Positions 4,238 to 47,373 of a stretch of DNA of 64,000 nt are shown piece after piece (the stretch's first letter is position 1; every line of letters starts with the position of its first letter). This stretch comes from an uncultured Pseudomonadota bacterium (GTDB taxonomy: Bacteria > Pseudomonadota > Alphaproteobacteria > Rs-D84), in the NCBI GenBank assembly GCA_902802115.1, contig CADCKW010000001.1, forward strand, positions 72,409-136,408, given 5' to 3'. Both the position numbers and the translations under genes were made by a program. The notes under the pieces were generated by a model, which saw only the letters and a program-made list of their open reading frames with translations, was not told the DNA's origin and made no database searches.

Positions 4238-4912
4238 ATGCTGGAAATAAAAAATCTATCTGTATCATACGGCGACAAAGTTTTACTGGAAAATATCAAC
4301 ATGTCTGTTGAACATGGCGCACGCCATTTGTTAAGTGGCCATAACGGTTCTGGTAAATCTACATTGGTTCAAACAATCGCCGGGAATCCAGAATACACAA
4401 TTCAAAACGGACAAATTATTTTCAACAATATCGACATAACAAATGAAAATTCGACGCGGCGCGCATTATTAGGAATTTTTCTGGGCGCACAAAACGTCCC
4501 TGAAATTCCCGGGTTATCCGTTATGTCTTTTTTTAAACACACCGTTGCGGCCCATAAACATTTTAATACCGGTCAAGATTTATCCATGGGCGAATTTATG
4601 GAAATGATGGAAAATGCACGCAACAAATTAAACATTCCACGCGATTGGTTAAACCGCAGTATGAACGTTGGTTTTTCTGGTGGGGAACGAAAACGTTTAA
4701 TGTTATTAAGGCTGATTTTGACCAAACCAAAATTTGCAATATTGGACGAACCTGATTCTGGGGCTGATATGGAAACGCAACAACAAATTGCAAATACAAT
4801 TCATGATATGCCCAACACAACTTTCATGTTTATCAGTCACCAAGAAGCATTTACAAAATTGATTTCACCAACCGAAATAACAACATTGGAAAAAGGAAAA
4901 ATAAAACAATAA
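4238..4912 (+). CDS. sufC: Fe-S cluster assembly ATPase SufC
   Basis: 224-aa ABC ATPase (Walker A GHNGSGKST, signature FSGGERKR, Walker B ILDEPDSG). It is 3 nt after the sufB stop. Confidence 0.85.
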   Translation: MLEIKNLSVSYGDKVLLENINMSVEHGARHLLSGHNGSGKSTLVQTIAGNPEYTIQNGQIIFNNIDITNENSTRRALLGIFLGAQNVPEIPGLSVMSFFKHTVAAHKHFNTGQDLSMGEFMEMMENARNKLNIPRDWLNRSMNVGFSGGERKRLMLLRLILTKPKFAILDEPDSGADMETQQQIANTIHDMPNTTFMFISHQEAFTKLISPTEITTLEKGKIKQ

Positions 4913-4920
4913 AAAACGCG

Positions 4921-4955
4921 CCCTGTCCCACGAAGCCTTGGCGAAGTGGGATACG
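4921..4955. repeat. Short hairpin repeat, CCAC-gaag…cgaag-GTGG family, copy 1
   Basis: The sequence ctgtCCCACgaagccttggcgaagTGGGAtac lies 3' of sufC. It shares a motif with the copies at 6038-6070 and 6113-6175. Confidence 0.5.
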
Positions 4956-4988
4956 CATTAAAACCAATAAAAAAAGGAGGCAACCAAC

Positions 4989-6035
4989 ATGACAAACGGA
5001 ATAATTGTTTTCACCGGAATTGTGATATTATTATGGTTCGGTCGTTCCATACTGATACCATTATTGGTGGCAATATTTTTATGGTATTTGATAAATGCAA
5101 TTGCTGCATATTTTCGTAAAATTTTACCATTTAGTTATTGTGTAAAAAATTGTCCAACATTTTGGCCAGGATTTTTTAACATATTATCAATATTATTATC
5201 CGCAACCAGTTTATGTTGGCTGCTTTATGCATTTGCAACACAAATAAATCCAATGTTTTCAGAATTCGTCGCACGAATTCCTGAAATACAATCTAAATTA
5301 ATATCATTCAGCACATATCTGTTTCATCAACTGGGATTAACATTTGATATCAATATGTTCCCCAATTTGACAGACATTGTAAAAACCGTCGGTTCATCTG
5401 CGGCAAACATCGCGACATCATTTGGTATGATATTGATTTACATTTTGTTTTTATTTGTGGAACAAAGCACATTTCATAAAAAATTAAACAATCTATTTGA
5501 ATCAAAATCCAAAACAAACAAATTCAAATTTATTATCGACAGTTTTGATAAAAACATGAAAAAATATTTATTTGTAAAAACCATTATTGCCGCTGCGACC
5601 GGAATTGGCGCATATATATGGTTGCGAATAATAGGATTGGAATTTGCAGGTGTTTGGGCATTTTTAGTATTCATCATGAATTACATACCAACAATTGGTT
5701 CGATTGTGGCATGTGCCATGCCGATTCTATACGCACTGATTTCGGGAGATTCTGTAAATTTACCAATATTAACCGCTGGCGGATTAATTGCGTTGGAAAT
5801 ATTATTTGGCAATATTTTGGATCCAAAATTTATGGGAAAAACATTAAATTTATCCACATTGGCAATATTAATAAATCTGGTATTTTGGGGATTATTGTGG
5901 GGAATCGCGGGAATGTTTTTCAGCGTTCCTATTTTGGCGGCAATATTCATTATCACCGCACAGTTTGATTCAACCCGTTGGATTGCTGTATTGTTATCAA
6001 CAGACGGTCAAATTCCAGAAAAAACCGAAGATTAA
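4989..6035 (+). CDS. AI-2E family (PerM/YhhT-like, UPF0118) membrane transporter
   Basis: 348-aa polytopic membrane protein. Its length and hydropathy pattern fit the AI-2E family. An AAAGGAGG RBS lies upstream. Confidence 0.6.
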   Translation: MTNGIIVFTGIVILLWFGRSILIPLLVAIFLWYLINAIAAYFRKILPFSYCVKNCPTFWPGFFNILSILLSATSLCWLLYAFATQINPMFSEFVARIPEIQSKLISFSTYLFHQLGLTFDINMFPNLTDIVKTVGSSAANIATSFGMILIYILFLFVEQSTFHKKLNNLFESKSKTNKFKFIIDSFDKNMKKYLFVKTIIAAATGIGAYIWLRIIGLEFAGVWAFLVFIMNYIPTIGSIVACAMPILYALISGDSVNLPILTAGGLIALEILFGNILDPKFMGKTLNLSTLAILINLVFWGLLWGIAGMFFSVPILAAIFIITAQFDSTRWIAVLLSTDGQIPEKTED

Positions 6036-41275: not shown

Positions 41276-41911
41276 ATGGAAAAACAAGAAATAAGAACAT
41301 TTGGTCGCAGACACGGCAAAAAATTATCGCCACGAAAACAGTTATTATTAGAAACTGTTTTGCCGGCTTTTTTGCCAAAAAACATCAAAAATGCCGGGAA
41401 TTTAATTTTGGAAATTGGTTTTGGTAATGGCGAACATGTTCGCGATTTGGCGATTCGCAATCCTGAATCTATTATTATTGGTGCCGAACCATTTATGAAC
41501 GGTGTTGCGGCATTATTATCGGCAATAACAAACGAATCGACCAATGAAATTATGAACGAATATAAAAACATAAGAATTTGGCCAGATGATGTTCGAAAAA
41601 TGTTTAATGAATTGGACGCAAAATTTAACGAAATATGGGTTTTGCACCCTGACCCATGGCCCAAGGCGCGACACGAAAAACGCAGATTATTAAATGCAGA
41701 TTTTTTATCTGTTTTGGGAACAAAACTGATGCCAAACGGTCAAATTATCATCGGCACAGACCATTGGGAATATTTCGATTGGATTGTCGAACAAAGTAAA
41801 AAAACGGCGCTTAACGCATCGTTTCCGGCACAATCTGTAATTCATACACGATATGCAGAAAAAAATATGGCAAAAACCACAGAACCCAAATATTTAATTT
41901 TATCCAATTAA
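41276..41911 (+). CDS. trmB: tRNA (guanine-N7)-methyltransferase
   Basis: 211 aa with a SAM-binding region (LEIGFGNGEH) and TrmB pattern (…HPDPWPKARHEKRRL…). Confidence 0.85.
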   Translation: MEKQEIRTFGRRHGKKLSPRKQLLLETVLPAFLPKNIKNAGNLILEIGFGNGEHVRDLAIRNPESIIIGAEPFMNGVAALLSAITNESTNEIMNEYKNIRIWPDDVRKMFNELDAKFNEIWVLHPDPWPKARHEKRRLLNADFLSVLGTKLMPNGQIIIGTDHWEYFDWIVEQSKKTALNASFPAQSVIHTRYAEKNMAKTTEPKYLILSN

Positions 41912-42576
41912 TACGCAACAAAGAATTTTAATTTATCTATCAATTCTGGACGATTTATTTTCACCAAACGATAAACTTGTTCTGCACGTATAAAACTGGT
42001 CCCCAACATAACATGTAATTCCATATTTTGTGCCGTCCAATTTTCTAATGCACTGTAAATTCTGCCAACAAAATCAGATGTATTCATATCTTCGTGGGAC
42101 ATAATCAATAACACAGATGAGGCATGCAATTTATCTAAATCTGCGAAAACATCAGCCCAATCCAAAGGCCATATTTCAAATATATCCAACCCGATTGATA
42201 AATCTTTGTTAAAAAACAAATCATCACGCACAGCCGACAGCGATTCAGCGAATCGTTTTAAATCATTTAATTTCACAATTAATTGGGCACCTGTTGCACC
42301 CTGTTTAAAAACAGAATTAATATTAACCACCAAATTAGAAATATCATCACCTGCAACACAATCGAATCGCGAATATATTTTTATATTTGATTTTTCAACC
42401 CATGGCCAAATCACAGGAACCGATGTCGGCGATACCGATAATGCAGGCACTTTCATTTCAACCATATATTCCGCCGCCCCGGCCAATTCCGCACCATCTG
42501 GGTTATCCCCCAGCCACAAAGACACAGATTTTGCCACATCAACATTATTATCAAAAATTTCTTTTATATCTATCAT
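41908..42576 (-). CDS. Hypothetical protein
   Basis: 222-aa ORF. It is divergent from the four-gene operon at 42619. Confidence 0.45.
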   Translation of the reverse strand: MIDIKEIFDNNVDVAKSVSLWLGDNPDGAELAGAAEYMVEMKVPALSVSPTSVPVIWPWVEKSNIKIYSRFDCVAGDDISNLVVNINSVFKQGATGAQLIVKLNDLKRFAESLSAVRDDLFFNKDLSIGLDIFEIWPLDWADVFADLDKLHASSVLLIMSHEDMNTSDFVGRIYSALENWTAQNMELHVMLGTSFIRAEQVYRLVKINRPELIDKLKFFVAY

Positions 42577-42618
42577 TATGCTTTCTAGTTTATCATAAAT
42601 ATGATATAATTAAAACAA

Positions 42619-43539
42619 ATGAAATTATACGACAGATTAAATTTTTTACTATTGGGAACATTATGGATTTTGGCCATAGTGCTGATATTAAATTTTTGGT
42701 TAAATACGGCATACCGTTTTAACATGTTTTCTGCGGCACATTGGGAATATATATCAAATATCCAGGCCCAAAATCTGCCTATATCCAGTGGTTTTTATAT
42801 CGCATTTATTGTATCAATAACCATGGGAATATTGGGGTTATATTTATTATTCCGTCCAAAATTTAGAAAAATAAAATTGCCCATATCACAAAAAACTGTG
42901 ACGCAACAAACCACACCACAACAACCAATTATCAAACCCGAACAAACGGTTCAGCAACCCGCACCACTGGAACAAAAAAACGATATTCAACCGACAAACA
43001 CACAAATATCATCAAATCCAATAATGGCACAACCACCGCGTTTGCATATTCAAATGCCACAAAAAACAGTAAATCGTCCTGTCACAGCAACCCAAAACAC
43101 ACCACAACAAACAAAAAAACAAGAACCCGTTGCGCGCTATACGCATGAAATCCGGGAAATTTTTGAAAAAAATAAATTTATGGTTTTAACACCAAAACCA
43201 ATCAATCGTATTCCTTTGTCATTGATTGCAATTGGTGCAAACGAAACATTATGGATTGGCGCAACCGATATATCACACGAACAAATGAGTGATATAATAT
43301 TGACATTAAAAAATGTATTTAACGAAACACTGGAAGATATTGAAATAGATTTAAATGCATTTATAATAAACCCAACAGATACAGATTTCGTAGATGCAAT
43401 TTTGGATTTAAAAGATATTCAAGAACTAGAATCCGCAATCCAAAATATTCCAAACGAACCTGAATCTGACGAAAACGACAGTATGGACGCTTTTGCTGGA
43501 TATATTGAAACCGTTTTGACATATTTGGGAAATAAATAA
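42619..43539 (+). CDS. Membrane protein with a Gln/Pro-rich linker (hypothetical); operon gene 1 of 4
   Basis: 306 aa with 3 N-terminal TM helices, a Q/P/T-rich low-complexity segment and an acidic C-terminal domain. It overlaps the next gene by 1 nt (TAATG). Confidence 0.5.
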   Translation: MKLYDRLNFLLLGTLWILAIVLILNFWLNTAYRFNMFSAAHWEYISNIQAQNLPISSGFYIAFIVSITMGILGLYLLFRPKFRKIKLPISQKTVTQQTTPQQPIIKPEQTVQQPAPLEQKNDIQPTNTQISSNPIMAQPPRLHIQMPQKTVNRPVTATQNTPQQTKKQEPVARYTHEIREIFEKNKFMVLTPKPINRIPLSLIAIGANETLWIGATDISHEQMSDIILTLKNVFNETLEDIEIDLNAFIINPTDTDFVDAILDLKDIQELESAIQNIPNEPESDENDSMDAFAGYIETVLTYLGNK

Positions 43540-44045
43540 TGAAAATAAGTGAAACAAACGCTATTGCACGCATATCAGAACTGGGCATGGACGATATGCC
43601 CCTGATAGAATACACACCCAAACCAAAACTATTACCGAATGATTGGTTTATGCGTTATCGCGCATTATGCCACGAATTTATGGAATCTTTATCAAATTAT
43701 GCAACCGAAATCGCATTTATGAATTTATCACAAAATGAATTTATGGGGTTATTAACCGGACGTGCATTACCACGAAACACATCTATTCGGTGGCGCATAC
43801 CAATTACACTGGGTGGTGAAATGTCGATTGAAAATATGTTTTTATGCCGCACTTTTCCAAACAGTCACAGACTAGACAGATTCATAATGGAACAAACCGG
43901 CAACGAAACATTATGGTTGCCTAATCCTGAAAAGGCGGTATATATCACAACACATACGGCAACGGGCGGCACCGGCGGAAACGCAACATCTGACCGTCTG
44001 TCCCAGGTCGCCGCACAAATTGCCAAAGATAATTCATTGGGGTAA
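43539..44045 (+). CDS. Hypothetical protein with a degenerate HNH-like motif; operon gene 2 of 4
   Basis: 168 aa. The segment RWRIPITLGGEMSIENMFLCRTFPNSHRLD resembles the HNH core (HH-I-P…GG…N-L…LC…C-H…H), but the first His pair and a Cys are substituted. Confidence 0.5.
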   Translation: MKISETNAIARISELGMDDMPLIEYTPKPKLLPNDWFMRYRALCHEFMESLSNYATEIAFMNLSQNEFMGLLTGRALPRNTSIRWRIPITLGGEMSIENMFLCRTFPNSHRLDRFIMEQTGNETLWLPNPEKAVYITTHTATGGTGGNATSDRLSQVAAQIAKDNSLG

Positions 44046-44048
44046 AAC

Positions 44049-44483
44049 ATGAACCAAACAGAATTTTTAGACACAATAAAAAACAAAGGCGCATTGATTT
44101 GGGGACCATCGAACGCACGCGCCATTGAATACGCAAATTCTAATTTACAGCAAAAAAAATGTGCCATGTTTCCTAATTTTATGATTAGTTTATATACACA
44201 AACGGCTGGAATAAATTTAGGATCCGGATATATATTTGGTCCAACGGAATTACCAAATGGAAACAATTTTCCAATCCCCAGCATCACAGATATAAACACA
44301 GAAATTCAAAACATACCGGCATTGAAAAACAAAACATTATTTGGTCGCAACGATTTATTTTGGTTTGCATTTGATTCTTTTGGAACATGTTATATGTTAA
44401 GCAATATAAATGGCAGCATTTTACGCAAATACGACGACGGATATCGCGCATTATATGATTGCCTGATGGGTGGAAAAATTTAA
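44049..44483 (+). CDS. Hypothetical protein; operon gene 3 of 4
   Basis: 144-aa ORF. It is 3 nt after the previous stop, and the next gene starts immediately after its stop. Confidence 0.5.
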   Translation: MNQTEFLDTIKNKGALIWGPSNARAIEYANSNLQQKKCAMFPNFMISLYTQTAGINLGSGYIFGPTELPNGNNFPIPSITDINTEIQNIPALKNKTLFGRNDLFWFAFDSFGTCYMLSNINGSILRKYDDGYRALYDCLMGGKI

Positions 44484-44687
44484 ATGAAAAAACTATCTGT
44501 ATCTTTATCTGGACATCAAACCAGTATATCACTGGAACCTGAATTTATATTGGAATTACAGCGTATAGCCAAAAATCAAAACACATCGGTCGCGGCAATT
44601 ATTTCCAATATAGACAAAACGCGCAGTGCAAATTCAAATTTATCATCTGCAATACGCGTTTGGATTTTAAACAATATAAAAAACTAA
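44484..44687 (+). CDS. Ribbon-helix-helix domain protein (COG4321-like); operon gene 4 of 4
   Basis: 67 aa. The sequence is LSVSLSGHQTSISLEPEFILELQRIAKNQNTSVAAIISNID…NLSSAIRVWIL, which is the conserved alphaproteobacterial RHH pattern. Confidence 0.6.
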   Translation: MKKLSVSLSGHQTSISLEPEFILELQRIAKNQNTSVAAIISNIDKTRSANSNLSSAIRVWILNNIKN

Positions 44688-45367
44688 TCTTTTTGTTTGT
44701 TTTTTTGTTCTGCCAAATGTGCCAACAATATTTGGTGTGACGATTTTGGCAACTCACTCAACAAAGCATCTGCGCATTGTGATTCTGTCACGAAATCATA
44801 ATTTTTCTCCATCAAAGATATAATTGTATTATGAATTTCATCATCTGAAAATTTTCTTTTTGCCGACCAATTATATTGCATTTTATATGGAACTTTGATG
44901 GGTGACAAAGTATTTATTTTTACCCCTAATTCTGTTGCTAATTTTTTGCGCGCATCATTTGAATTAAACAAACACAAAACTGTATTACGACCATGCGCGG
45001 TTCTGCGAAATTGAATCAAAGGCATACCTTTTTCATCACGCATAGATGCCAAATCTTTATCTTTGATATCACGCACCAAATTAATAATTTTAGAAACAGG
45101 TATTTGATACAATGAAACCAATCGTATCACAGGCGTCCAATGAATATCTTGCACTGGAACTTTTTTTAAATTCACCAAATTAAACCTATTAACAAATTCA
45201 TCAAAATAATCTTTATGTAAAAAATATTGACCGTCACGAAACAAAACACGTTTGCGACCACCCCTTGTATCATAAACAGATTTTAAATTTTGTACCAATG
45301 CATCACGTGATATATCAACATTCGCCCGTATTTTGTCATAATCCAACCAAACATTAGTTTTAAACAT
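44684..45367 (-). CDS. Hypothetical protein
   Basis: 227-aa ORF, convergent with the RHH gene; the two overlap by 4 nt. Confidence 0.5.
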   Translation of the reverse strand: MFKTNVWLDYDKIRANVDISRDALVQNLKSVYDTRGGRKRVLFRDGQYFLHKDYFDEFVNRFNLVNLKKVPVQDIHWTPVIRLVSLYQIPVSKIINLVRDIKDKDLASMRDEKGMPLIQFRRTAHGRNTVLCLFNSNDARKKLATELGVKINTLSPIKVPYKMQYNWSAKRKFSDDEIHNTIISLMEKNYDFVTESQCADALLSELPKSSHQILLAHLAEQKNKQKD

Positions 45368-45408
45368 AACAACCGCCTTTTATTTTTTACAAATAACACT
45401 ATATATCT

Positions 45409-47373
45409 TTAATTACGTTTATCAAGTCTATACGCAATGAAACCGCCAAAAATTGCAATTAGAACAATTATAACAAACCACGCATCACGCCCCAACAACC
45501 TATACAAAGTCATATGGGAACCAGTTGCCACACCGTCCAACACACCAATTTGTCCAATGGGTAATTGCGATATAATTTTACCGTCCGCACCAACAAACGC
45601 ACTAATTCCAGAATAATTAGCCCTGATAACCGGAACACCCGATTCGATTGCCGCCCTGCGCACCATATCCAGATGTTGATATGTCCCCGGCGTTTTTCCA
45701 AACCAAGTATCATTTGTTATATTCACAATCGCATCAACATAATCATTTTTTACAACCGCATTTGAAAATATAATTTCATAGCAAACCGCCGGCGCAAAAA
45801 CAAAACTGGTGTTTTTATCAATACGTAAATCCATCAAACGCGCACCTTGCCCAGCCGTCAAATTTGCAGGTGTTGGAATAAATTTAATTGGACCATATTC
45901 ACCAAACGGCACCAAATGAGATTTACTGTAATAATCTAAAATATCACCATTTTCATTTGCCAAAACCAATGAATTATATACTGACGAATCATAATCAACA
46001 ACATGCGCACCAATTATCACAGGAACATTTAATTGTTTTGCAATCGGCATAAAATCATTTGGACGCAATGCAAACGGATACGATGTTTCTGGATAAATAA
46101 CAACATCAATATTGCGAACATCACCCGCCAATTTTATCAATGCATCAACACGATTTTTTGCCTGATTCAATGCGTCCGCACGCGTCATAGAAATTTTAGA
46201 TTCTTGACTGGTCACTGGTTGAACGACACGAATTCGCGTTGCACTATTACCCATATTTGATATTCCAATATTATTATATCCTGCAAACAACCCAACAACC
46301 AAAACCAGCATAAAAAACACAAACAAAAACCAATTCGCTTTGCCACCACGATTATATAATAATTGCACAGACGATGCAATCAAACCAAATATCACAAATC
46401 CTAATCCCAATGCACCAAACAACGACATAGAATTCGAAATAATTGCGCCACCCAAAGTAATATTTGCAATTGGATTCCATGGAAACCCAGTCAAAAACCA
46501 TTCACGCAACCACAACACCGCAGTTGCCGACAAAGCAAAAACCATTGGTTTTACACTATTTTCATTGTATATACATCGTGTCAATACAAATGGAATTGTG
46601 AATATAATTGCGCCAACCAATGCCAATCCAATCAATGCCGGCCCGGTCCAAATTGCAAATTGTTTTGTTAATTCCGGAACAACATATATGGAATTTAACG
46701 ACCACCAAAACATAGAAATTGAATACATGGCACCAAACGGAATCGCACGCAGCCAAACCCGCCACCAAGAAACTTTGTCATCACCCATACACAGCAACCA
46801 ATATGCCGCCCCAAATGCCAAAATTGTTATCCACCATAAATTAAAAGGCGCAAAACCCAACGATGCCAAACCACCCAGCACCCCAACCAACACATATTTC
46901 CACCATTTAAACCCAGAAACATTTTCATCAGCATACGGATTTTTAAACCCTAACTTTTTCAAAACTTTAATTTCTTTGGCCTCCATAACACGCGCCTGGG
47001 CATCAGTCAAATGATCATAACCCAACAAATGAAACATACCATGCACAACCATATGCGCCGTATGTTCAGCCACAGAAATATTCGCCGCCGCCGCTTCACG
47101 TTTTACAGTATCCAACGATATATAAATATCCCCCAACAAAATATCGTCACCCAATTCAAAAGACAAAACATTTGTTGGTTTATCCATATTACGATACATT
47201 TTATTCATCGCATGAATTTCATTATCATCAGTCAAAGTAATAGAAACCTCGGCATCACGATATTTTGCGCCAACAACCGCATTTGCAATTTTTTCAAAAT
47301 CTATATTATATTTTTTCCAACGTGAATCATTGTAATTAACATAAACTTTCATTTTTATCGCCTCTATACGCAT
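45409..47373 (-). CDS. ybeY-lnt: Fusion protein: endoribonuclease YbeY (N-terminus) + apolipoprotein N-acyltransferase Lnt (C-terminus)
   Basis: 654-aa single ORF. Residues about 1-150 carry the YbeY metal motif HGMFHLLGYDH and the C-terminal …LKKLGFKNPY. Polytopic Lnt follows directly (FAPFNLWWI…), with a CN-hydrolase domain (VVIYPE…, catalytic Cys in APAVCYEIIF). No stop separates them. Confidence 0.75.
   Translation of the reverse strand: MRIEAIKMKVYVNYNDSRWKKYNIDFEKIANAVVGAKYRDAEVSITLTDDNEIHAMNKMYRNMDKPTNVLSFELGDDILLGDIYISLDTVKREAAAANISVAEHTAHMVVHGMFHLLGYDHLTDAQARVMEAKEIKVLKKLGFKNPYADENVSGFKWWKYVLVGVLGGLASLGFAPFNLWWITILAFGAAYWLLCMGDDKVSWWRVWLRAIPFGAMYSISMFWWSLNSIYVVPELTKQFAIWTGPALIGLALVGAIIFTIPFVLTRCIYNENSVKPMVFALSATAVLWLREWFLTGFPWNPIANITLGGAIISNSMSLFGALGLGFVIFGLIASSVQLLYNRGGKANWFLFVFFMLVLVVGLFAGYNNIGISNMGNSATRIRVVQPVTSQESKISMTRADALNQAKNRVDALIKLAGDVRNIDVVIYPETSYPFALRPNDFMPIAKQLNVPVIIGAHVVDYDSSVYNSLVLANENGDILDYYSKSHLVPFGEYGPIKFIPTPANLTAGQGARLMDLRIDKNTSFVFAPAVCYEIIFSNAVVKNDYVDAIVNITNDTWFGKTPGTYQHLDMVRRAAIESGVPVIRANYSGISAFVGADGKIISQLPIGQIGVLDGVATGSHMTLYRLLGRDAWFVIIVLIAIFGGFIAYRLDKRN

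Follow-up and report, generated by a model that had tools for sequence, protein, structure and literature searches.

A putatively exapted HNH toxin-immunity pair within a conserved four-gene operon of uncultured gut Alphaproteobacteria

The DNA analysed here, in the following called the window, is a stretch of 64,000 nucleotides from an uncultured alphaproteobacterium of the Rs-D84 lineage (assembly GCA_902802115.1, contig CADCKW010000001.1, positions 72,409 to 136,408 of the forward strand). At positions 42619-44687 it carries four tightly coupled genes, referred to as gene 1 to gene 4, and it was shown that this locus is a vertically inherited operon, which is present in every related Enterousia-like (Rs-D84) locus sampled. 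The explanation that we regard, with moderate confidence, as the best one is that gene 2 and gene 3 are an exapted toxin-immunity pair forming a non-catalytic, membrane-associated complex, which would act as an accessory of a translocation or DNA-handling machine. The HNH/YrhA type of cassette to which this pair would trace back is known; the exapted, catalytically degenerate form of it inside a four-gene operon appears to be new. A literature search found no paper describing this locus, and the database members of these families are all named 'hypothetical protein' save one carrying a 'SMI1/KNR4' label.

All four open reading frames (ORFs) are encoded on the + strand, i.e., gene 1 at 42619-43539 (306 amino acids, aa), gene 2 at 43539-44045 (168 aa), gene 3 at 44049-44483 (144 aa) and gene 4 at 44484-44687 (67 aa). 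These lengths, as well as the junctions between the genes, had been described in an earlier note made from the sequence alone and they agree with the ORF listing and with direct reading of the sequence: the TAA stop codon of gene 1 and the ATG start codon of gene 2 overlap by one base (TAATG), gene 2 and gene 3 are separated by a gap of 3 nt (TAA-AAC-ATG) and the TAA of gene 3 abuts the ATG of gene 4 (TAAATG). Genes 2, 3 and 4 have one reading frame in common. The databases contain 283 homologs of gene 2, almost all of them 166-170 aa long, 347 homologs of gene 3, nearly all of 144 aa, and 103 homologs of gene 1; these numbers and the full-length Pfam match of gene 4 confirmed that all four ORFs are real genes.

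Gene 2 is predicted to encode a cytoplasmic protein of 168 aa, which is homologous to the C-terminal HNH (His-Me finger) toxin domain of the YhhZ type. It has no signal peptide, no transmembrane (TM) segment and no N-terminal trafficking domain of the Hcp, Rhs, PAAR or LXG type. The AlphaFold2 (AF2) model, which was calculated from a 65-sequence alignment and reached a predicted local distance difference test score (pLDDT) of 86.6, shows strands at residues 81-85 and 100-104 and a helix at residues 105-117, and thereby the two antiparallel strands followed by a helix that define the ββα-metal fold. This core (aa 81-117, TSIRWRIPITLGGEMSIENMFLCRTFPNSHRLDRFIM, positions 43779-43889, + strand) is delineated by the secondary structure of the model and by the alignment with YhhZ, and conservation within the family is highest in the motif RWRIPITLGGEMSIENMFLCRTFPNSHRLD. 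The earlier note had tentatively described gene 2 as degenerate HNH-like, a view that is supported by the modelled ββα core and by the profile alignments to the HNH domains of YhhZ and of IncHI plasmid proteins; gene 2 was not assigned to any non-nuclease family.

Homology to YhhZ was reached by way of intermediates. Neither the gene 2 protein nor any alphaproteobacterial relative scanned matches a Pfam or NCBIfam family, including the HNH profile PF01844, which YhhZ itself matches with E = 0.005 at best, and searches of PDB sequences with the single gene 2 and gene 3 proteins and with the family profiles resulted in nothing significant. When 1.8 billion representative proteins were searched exhaustively with HMMER, the gene 2 profile retrieved 81 clusters in total. 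The distant members of the family are proteins of 180-433 aa with the domain at the C-terminus (P0382 and related proteins, E = 4e-9), and these are matched by residues 250-385 of YhhZ in BLASTP searches with E = 2.7e-17 to 1e-9 and 30-37% identity. Comparison of alignments by hhalign connected gene 2 with YhhZ and two plasmid homologs (88% probability, E = 2.8e-6, 118 columns), and connected a profile of the sister lineage, which is linked to a VirD4-type gene as described below, with gene 2 (98% probability, E = 1.7e-14). Against the single YhhZ sequence the gene 2 profile gave a convincing-looking alignment with an insignificant score (probability 0.6%), and for this reason the intermediates and the three-sequence profile were used. 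Moreover, YhhZ was reached independently, as a weak YrhA signal in gene 3 led to E. coli yrhA, which overlaps the 3' end of yhhZ. YhhZ is annotated as 'putative endonuclease YhhZ', consists of an Hcp/TssD domain and a C-terminal HNH domain, and represents group 32 of the His-Me finger classification (Jablonska et al., 2017; PMC5714182).

The comparison of gene 2 with YhhZ suggests that the fold was retained and the active site was lost. The C-terminal domain of YhhZ, of about 130 aa, is homologous to gene 2 throughout, with a helical region preceding the HNH part, the ββα core and a following β-strand. The spacing of the motif P-x-N-x-x-[IV]-X-X-[KR]...GG...N-[LM] is identical, and the alignment with YhhZ (NVHHKLSLDDGGTNDFENLVLIENEPYH) is gap-free from P-x-N via the GG turn to the N-[LM] strand. 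In the HH dyad of HNH enzymes, the first histidine serves as metal ligand and the second one as water activator or general base (PMC3113570). YhhZ has an intact dyad and an intact PYH histidine, whereas these are replaced in gene 2, with the helix reading FP[H/N]S[H/Q]. Residues R84 and W85 occupy the dyad positions, so that the catalytic histidine pair is indeed substituted, as the earlier note had stated. In 119 gene 2 homologs, for which the catalytic-site columns were counted, R84 is found in 117, and position 85, which aligns to H323 of YhhZ (NVHHK starting from residue 320), is F, W, L or M in all 119. The general-base histidine, which in HNH proteins terminates strand 1, is absent from gene 2, and the metal-ligand positions are likewise altered: next to R84, S109 (or H110) is located at the position of the PYH histidine and D113, present in 118 of the 119, at the second helix histidine. 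The structural asparagine and the GG turn are preserved, with N99 in 119/119 and G92 and G93 invariant.

The loss of the site appears graded between the lineages. YhhZ and the plasmid proteins have N/Q-V-H-H-K in the dyad region and P-Y-H in the helix region, the VirD4-linked alphaproteobacterial proteins have N-V-H-[L/I/M/Q/R]-K-V-P and T-H-P-Y-H-x-x-I-H, and the window lineage has S-I-R-[F/W/L/M]-R-I-P and T-F-P-[H/N]-S-[H/Q]-x-x-D. Thus, the sister lineage keeps histidine at all three metal-ligand positions and has lost the general base, which is replaced in every alphaproteobacterial member examined. Given the replaced HH dyad, the gene 2 protein of the window lineage is no longer expected to be a canonical nuclease and as a nuclease is most likely dead.

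A further difference to YhhZ, which is fused to Hcp, is that gene 2 encodes a standalone protein with an additional C-terminal extension (aa 139-168, positions 43953-44042, + strand), delineated by the alignments and the AF2 model, which comprises the Gly-rich loop GGTGGNATSDR and a helix. This tail, of the pattern LxxPxPxxxVY...GGxxxxDR followed by the helix, is found in all alphaproteobacterial members and is absent from YhhZ and the IncHI HNH proteins. Residues G146, G147, N148, D152 and R153 are invariant; residues 141-148, the sole low-confidence part of the model, have a pLDDT < 50, and a helix spanning residues 149-167 follows.

Gene 3, which had been listed as an unknown protein, is reassigned here to a YrhA-family (SUKH-like) relative. 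It matches the YrhA family NF038335 of NCBIfam over nearly its full length with E = 4.8e-4 (20 bits), and 50 of 58 gene 3 homologs match the same family at sub-threshold level, the best one with E = 3e-7. The curated cutoff of NF038335 is 55 bits; the gene 3 protein of the window is below it, so that it is a distant YrhA relative and not a member by the curated criterion, while the homolog in the VirD4-linked locus L091 scores 66.6 bits and YrhA of the IncHI plasmids 124.6 bits. The 144-aa genes that lie 3' of the distant gene 2-like genes align to gene 3 by hhalign with 86-95% probability. The homolog P0154 is named 'SMI1/KNR4 family protein' by NCBI. Matches to the Pfam families SUKH-1, SUKH-5 and SUKH-6 are weak (all E ≥ 0.027), and among PDB sequences a broad gene 3 profile matches the SUKH structure 2ICG best, though without significance (E = 0.36). 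A literature search on YrhA function found nothing useful.

HNH-fold toxins are classically paired with SUKH proteins as their immunity partners (PMC3113570). By analogy, gene 3 is the presumed immunity partner in a cassette of the YhhZ-YrhA type, in which the YrhA-family gene is located immediately 3' of the nuclease gene and tightly coupled to it, as is the case for gene 2 and gene 3. A gene 3-like or YrhA gene was found directly 3' of the gene 2-type gene in every sufficiently long context examined, covering the E. coli chromosome, IncHI and Kosakonia plasmids and four alphaproteobacterial lineages; gene 2 and gene 3 together make up the ancient core around which the module is built. As gene 3 is a YrhA-family (SUKH-like) relative, both genes are proposed to descend from a polymorphic-toxin/immunity cassette. 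In a further lineage (L088, 1945-5818, - strand) the pair stands alone, i.e., without gene 1 and without a ribbon-helix-helix (RHH) gene. Its neighbours encode two large paralogs of 704 and 582 aa, the larger of which has a type-IV-pilin-like N-terminus (…GYTMMEMIAVLGIF…).

Cassettes of the same type are known in other settings. Hcp-ET1, the type to which YhhZ belongs, is an HNH-DNase delivered by the type VI secretion system that was experimentally tested (PMC6730261). A cassette composed of an HNH endonuclease and YrhA was found in 458 plasmid records, of which 433 are predicted to be conjugative. In the IncHI-type plasmid NZ_CP031568.1 it is located at 4359-5936, inside the transfer region near TraG-N, TrhH and a lytic transglycosylase; the Kosakonia plasmid L119, which is non-mobilizable, carries at 4377-5930 an HNH protein with an intact VHHK and its YrhA partner. 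Since VHHK and PYH are kept, the plasmid HNH proteins are presumably active; to our knowledge, no function has been described for the plasmid cassette. The IncHI pair (e.g., pSHV12-1301491, WP_000902297 and WP_004248828) represents the same cassette as the window pair, and its association with tra genes parallels the VirD4 association of the sister lineage. It differs in that it is plasmid-borne, has no gene 1 or RHH_4 partner and includes an N-terminal region of 200 aa in the HNH protein, partly in common with YhhZ, which gene 2 does not have. In the same way, the YhhZ-YrhA pair differs from the window pair, which shares its four-gene operon with the genes for a membrane protein and for an RHH protein.

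The SUKH immunity systems (Zhang, Iyer and Aravind, 2011) resemble the window in that a SUKH-type gene, in the window a putative one, follows an HNH-fold gene; they differ in that gene 3 of the window scores below the family cutoffs, its matches to the Pfam SUKH families having E ≥ 0.1, and the window has no tandem arrays of immunity paralogs. For a housekeeping role of such proteins at a membrane translocon there is the precedent of Syd, a SUKH protein acting at the SecY translocon (PMC3113570). Similarly, inactive His-Me finger domains are kept for binding or structural purposes in the SMAD MH1 domain and in the nuclease-like domains of ENPP and autotaxin (PMC5714182); unlike gene 2, these are eukaryotic, unrelated in sequence and without an immunity-type partner.

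The distribution of the locus was studied in one genome per GTDB species. Relatives of gene 2 were detected in 187 GTDB species representatives, all of them uncultured gut or rumen Alphaproteobacteria, many of which are named Candidatus Enterousia, and the closest relative is found in RUG13870 (97% gene 2 identity). Enterousia is placed in the order Rs-D84, whose genomes are mostly < 1 Mb and encode about 800-900 genes (PMC12306168). For gene order, the window proteins were compared by tblastn with 85 related loci; the order of genes 1 to 4 and their shared orientation are kept in 84 of these, and the lone exception is a contig of 1.3 kb that ends within the unit. Together with the divergent gene upstream of gene 1 (see below) the unit is retained where the upstream flank (TrmB/GltX) differs (L054, L060, L062, L074 and L075). 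The same four genes are found next to different neighbours in L090, a metagenome-assembled genome (MAG) labelled 'Rickettsiales' (gene 2 identity 36%), and in L092 (34%), where the unit is flanked by AccAD/HU/MlaA and, at its other end, by AsmA/UvrB. As the arrangement is kept in L090 and L092 with different neighbours, the linkage of the four genes is considered functional and not merely frozen synteny. Hence, comparing the arrangement in other genomes, as the earlier note had proposed, showed that the genes are linked and not scattered in related genomes.

The median identities among distant Enterousia loci are 34% for gene 1, 55% for gene 2, 52% for gene 3 and 65% for gene 4, compared to 53% for YbeY-Lnt, 66% for TrmB and 76% for GltX in the same loci. 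Because these values are similar to those of YbeY-Lnt and TrmB, genes 2 to 4 evolve at ordinary housekeeping rates. An origin as prophage or mobile island was considered and rejected on account of the conserved synteny. Three of the loci carrying this alphaproteobacterial syntenic arrangement (L074, CAZUED010000009.1; L075, CAYJAG010000038.1; L076, OZ246409.1) were deposited as 'uncultured Muribaculaceae', labels that are almost certainly wrong; OZ246409.1, a 'chromosome' of 716,531 bp, may be a complete Rs-D84-type genome.

The connection to translocation comes from the sister lineage. In the Alphaproteobacteria MAG GCA_024407875.1 (L091), the gene 2-like protein has 423 aa, with the N-terminus 'MWDWS', a long P/Q-rich region and the gene 2 domain, and its gene lies directly 3' of a gene for a VirD4/TraG-type coupling protein of 763 aa (Pfam T4SS-DNA_transf, E = 5.5e-57) and 5' of a YrhA-family gene. 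The two genes upstream of VirD4 encode weak homologs of gene 1 (E = 6e-7 and 1.6e-4), which have the gene 1 architecture including a conserved H-W loop between two TM helices. A scan of metagenomes found 24 further loci of this lineage, and the order [gene 1 paralog][gene 1 paralog][VirD4][gene 2-like][gene 3-like] was present in every locus long enough, about 20 in number, with VirD4 identities of 63-83% between the loci. Since the neighbours include genes for GroEL, MlaC and DUF1189, the sister-lineage locus is taken to be chromosomal. The VirD4-like proteins of this lineage are unusually long (763-798 aa; L086, 2-1654; L098, 7568-9964) and terminate in an extreme Asp/Glu/Tyr-rich acidic tail of ~60-70 residues.

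Gene 1 matches no Pfam or NCBIfam family. In the AF2 model (pLDDT 80) helices are formed by residues 3-32, 39-50 and 57-78 and residues 80-170 are disordered, and the protein can be divided into a TM hairpin (aa 1-80, 42619-42858, + strand; AF2 and hydropathy), a disordered, basic, P/Q/T-rich linker (aa 81-170, 42859-43128, + strand; AF2 and composition) and an acidic α/β C-terminal domain (aa 171-306, 43129-43536, + strand; AF2 and isoelectric point, pI). Of the three TM helices claimed in the earlier note, two were found by hydropathy and AF2 (~3-32 and 57-78); the helix 39-50 between them is short, conserved and polar and contains the invariant residues H41 and W42. The Q/P/T-rich linker and the acidic C-terminal domain of that description stand, with 49% P+Q+T and a pLDDT of ~50 over residues 81-170 and a pI of 4.1 for residues 171-306. 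The basic segment RPKFRKIK after the second TM helix suggests, by the positive-inside rule, that linker and C-terminal domain are cytoplasmic.

The fold of residues 175-305 in the AF2 model, α-β-β-β-α-β-β-α-α, fits the α-β-β-β-α-β core topology of PD-(D/E)xK nucleases. Foldseek against the PDB gave no significant match (best E = 0.096), and the top list, with E ~0.1-1, consists almost entirely of PD-(D/E)xK nucleases, i.e., NucS, the Cas4-like ACE1, cap-snatching endonucleases of arenaviruses and bunyaviruses, Kpn2I, Hef, Bax1, OkrAI and BamHI. Furthermore, the gene 1 homolog of L090 has a weak match to NERD (E = 0.016), below the Pfam cutoff. Judged from the model and these matches, the C-terminal domain is probably restriction-endonuclease/NERD-like. 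By inspection, a catalytic D...(D/E)-x-K motif is not evident in the alignment: strand 2 reads L-x-A-I-G without an aspartate, N-E-x-L-W-I-G precedes strand 3, corresponding to E-x-L and not to E-x-K, and E209 is the only nearly invariant residue. This nuclease-like domain is probably inactive as well. A reading of gene 1 as ZipA-like, with a TM segment, a P/Q-rich linker and a globular domain, was considered and is unsupported, the C-terminal domain being nuclease-like.

Gene 4 encodes a basic (pI 10.2) COG4321-type RHH protein, as the earlier note had recognised, and matches Pfam RHH_4 (PF13467) with E = 6e-21 over residues 2-64 of 67 (74.7 bits compared to a cutoff of 25). The unit ends with gene 4 in 84 of the 85 Enterousia-type loci, in L090 and in L092, and this gene is absent from the VirD4-linked lineage. 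A literature search on RHH_4/COG4321 found nothing useful. On the other side of the unit, a gene for an acidic protein of 222 aa (u222, 41908-42576, - strand) is divergent from gene 1, with 42 bp between the start codons, and it has no family match in Pfam, NCBIfam or PADLOC. It lies directly upstream wherever an Enterousia-type locus extends far enough to cover the position; its homologs adjoin gene 1 in L090, are 4 kb away in L092 and are absent from the VirD4-linked loci, and u222 is possibly a fifth, more loosely linked component.

Taken together, we propose that the gene 2 protein was exapted together with its former immunity protein, encoded by gene 3, as a stable non-catalytic heterocomplex. 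Gene 1, as an inner-membrane hairpin with cytoplasmic linker and domain, would tether or organise this complex at the membrane, and gene 4 may autoregulate the operon or supply DNA binding. In the cell, the module would assist a machine for membrane translocation or DNA handling, as its adaptor, substrate or regulator, and would not serve as a weapon or defence. Such an accessory role is considered most likely because genes resembling genes 1, 2 and 3 are co-operonic with a VirD4-type ATPase in the sister lineage, and a translocation-related role is also suggested by the IncHI plasmids, whose tra region houses the ancestral cassette. A more far-reaching version, which we regard as speculative and rather improbable, is that the disarmed DNase/immunity pair and the gene 1 pseudo-nuclease are subunits or substrates of an undescribed VirD4-dependent translocation apparatus of genome-reduced gut Alphaproteobacteria (Rs-D84 and relatives). 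If this were the case, it would amount to a novel class of envelope machinery assembled from parts of conflict systems, possibly exchanging DNA or proteins with other cells, in bacteria that are probably partner-dependent.

Several points weigh against the exaptation reading. The inactivity of gene 2 and the binding between the gene 2 and gene 3 proteins are predictions, non-histidine bases are used by some His-Me finger enzymes, and the SUKH (SMI1/KNR4) fold of gene 3 is tentatively suggested at the level of sequence. Neither the 64-kb window nor the Enterousia-type loci, of roughly 12 kb, contain VirD4, so that the translocation link is extrapolated to the window from the sister lineage, and within 10 kb of the sister-lineage loci no VirB genes recognisable by Pfam or NCBIfam were found. 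Finally, gene order is broadly syntenic in these reduced genomes and part of the linkage signal could be passive, a caveat that is countered by L092 with its different flanks.

The rival that survives best, although we give it a low probability, is a toxin-immunity or addiction system that is still working. The gene 2 protein would be toxic in a non-canonical manner, by tight DNA binding, by metal-dependent nicking with another base or by blocking a target protein, gene 3 would confer immunity, gene 4 would be an autorepressor and gene 1 would serve in export or anchoring, and the toxin would act inside the cell or in neighbouring cells after delivery (VirD4 and a type IV secretion system, T4SS, in the sister lineage). 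This would agree with the homology of the pair to the tested DNase toxin/immunity cassette type of Hcp-ET1 (PMC6730261), with a partner gene that is kept everywhere, with the three metal-ligand histidines and the gene 2-like gene directly 3' of VirD4 in the sister lineage, and with an RHH protein at the locus, as is typical of toxin-antitoxin (TA) operons. The added C-terminal tail of gene 2, which is often basic at its end, may also resemble the C-terminal signals of T4SS substrates. However, the general base is lost in all alphaproteobacterial members and the metal-ligand histidines are also lost in the window lineage, gene 2 has no N-terminal trafficking domain, and the unit is kept across genomes of ~850 genes. 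Moreover, unlike polymorphic toxin systems, the locus is vertical, slow-evolving in a housekeeping-like manner, fixed at a single syntenic position and non-polymorphic. It resembles type II TA operons in being composed of small, translationally coupled genes including an RHH (CopG, Arc, MetJ-type) protein, and differs from them in that gene 4 is a separate protein of 67 aa at the 3' end and not a 5' antitoxin fusion, that four genes are involved and that these are non-mobile and present in every related locus sampled; scans of Pfam, NCBIfam and PADLOC returned no match to a TA toxin family or PADLOC system. Judged by their defining features, the locus belongs neither to the polymorphic toxin systems nor to the type II TA systems, nor to any system in PADLOC.

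A role in defence against phages or plasmids, or in entry exclusion, is unlikely. Here, gene 1 would sense a DNA, T4SS or phage event and gene 2 and gene 3 would form a sensor-effector switch, which would fit the conflict-system folds of the three larger proteins (HNH, SUKH, and NERD or PD-(D/E)xK-like) and the relatives in the IncHI transfer region and beside VirD4. Against this, a search of PADLOC-DB v2 with genes 1 to 4 and the two flanking unknown genes gave zero matches at E ≤ 1, the viral contigs scanned with both gene 2 types (window and sister lineage) contained no relatives, the unit occupies a fixed position, not a variable island, in all related loci that were sampled, and catalytic residues are apparently missing in both nuclease-like domains. 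The suggestion of the earlier note that the locus might be a defence or toxin-antitoxin system is thus not upheld, as there is no PADLOC match and no mobile or variable island, and position, synteny and rates are those of housekeeping genes in genomes < 1 Mb. Passive clustering of four unrelated lineage-specific genes with frozen gene order in reduced genomes and without joint function, which the synteny of the neighbourhood over tens of kilobases from ThrRS to MgsA might suggest, is very improbable given that the genes stay together despite differing flanks in L092, L054, L060 and L062, that the gene 2-gene 3 pairing reaches Enterobacteriaceae, that gene 1-like, gene 2-like and gene 3-like genes co-occur again around VirD4 and that start and stop codons overlap or abut.

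If exaptation is correct, the operon would give a clear example from bacteria of how the genes for a contact-dependent DNase toxin and for the protein conferring immunity to it become conserved parts of the chromosome, with a sequence record of graded active-site loss from VHHK via VH[L/I/M]K to IR[W/F]R. The retention of the four genes in every sampled locus, in genomes of ~0.7-1 Mb and ~850 genes, points to an important role in this uncultured gut lineage. Moreover, the cassette is repeatedly linked to type IV transfer genes, both within the tra region of IncHI plasmids and in the alphaproteobacterial VirD4 operon, which points to an accessory role in translocating DNA or proteins that has so far gone unrecognised, and several large families of 'hypothetical proteins' gain names.

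In the genome the unit is embedded in the order ThrRS, HlyIII, GltX, TrmB, u222 (divergent), genes 1-4, a YbeY-Lnt fusion, MucR and MgsA. A scan of 41800-45500 for promoters and terminators gave 16 promoter-like sites, which is not above expectation (19.5 ± 4.2 in shuffled sequence), and no + strand terminator 3' of gene 4, and an Rfam scan of the window detected just two tRNAs, both away from the operon. Between gene 4 and YbeY-Lnt, a basic ORF of 227 aa (pI 9.6; 44684-45367, - strand) is located, whose 3' end overlaps the stop codon of gene 4 by 4 nt in convergent orientation and whose sole family match is a weak one to Phage_CI_repr (E = 0.13). It is present in the window and in the closest relative L006 (86% identity) and in 0 of 83 other related loci; being confined to these two, it is probably a recent insertion. 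The YbeY-Lnt fusion (LNT_N and CN_hydrolase; 45409-47373, - strand, 654 aa) combines an rRNA maturation factor with an apolipoprotein N-acyltransferase and is fused in all related loci with annotated genes, the distant L090 included. Over the whole window (1-64000) the GC skew is negative in nearly all 1-kb bins, with a cumulative value of -11.4 over 64 kb, and the long ORFs are mostly on the - strand, which fits a location of the whole window on one replichore with the lagging-strand sequence being read.

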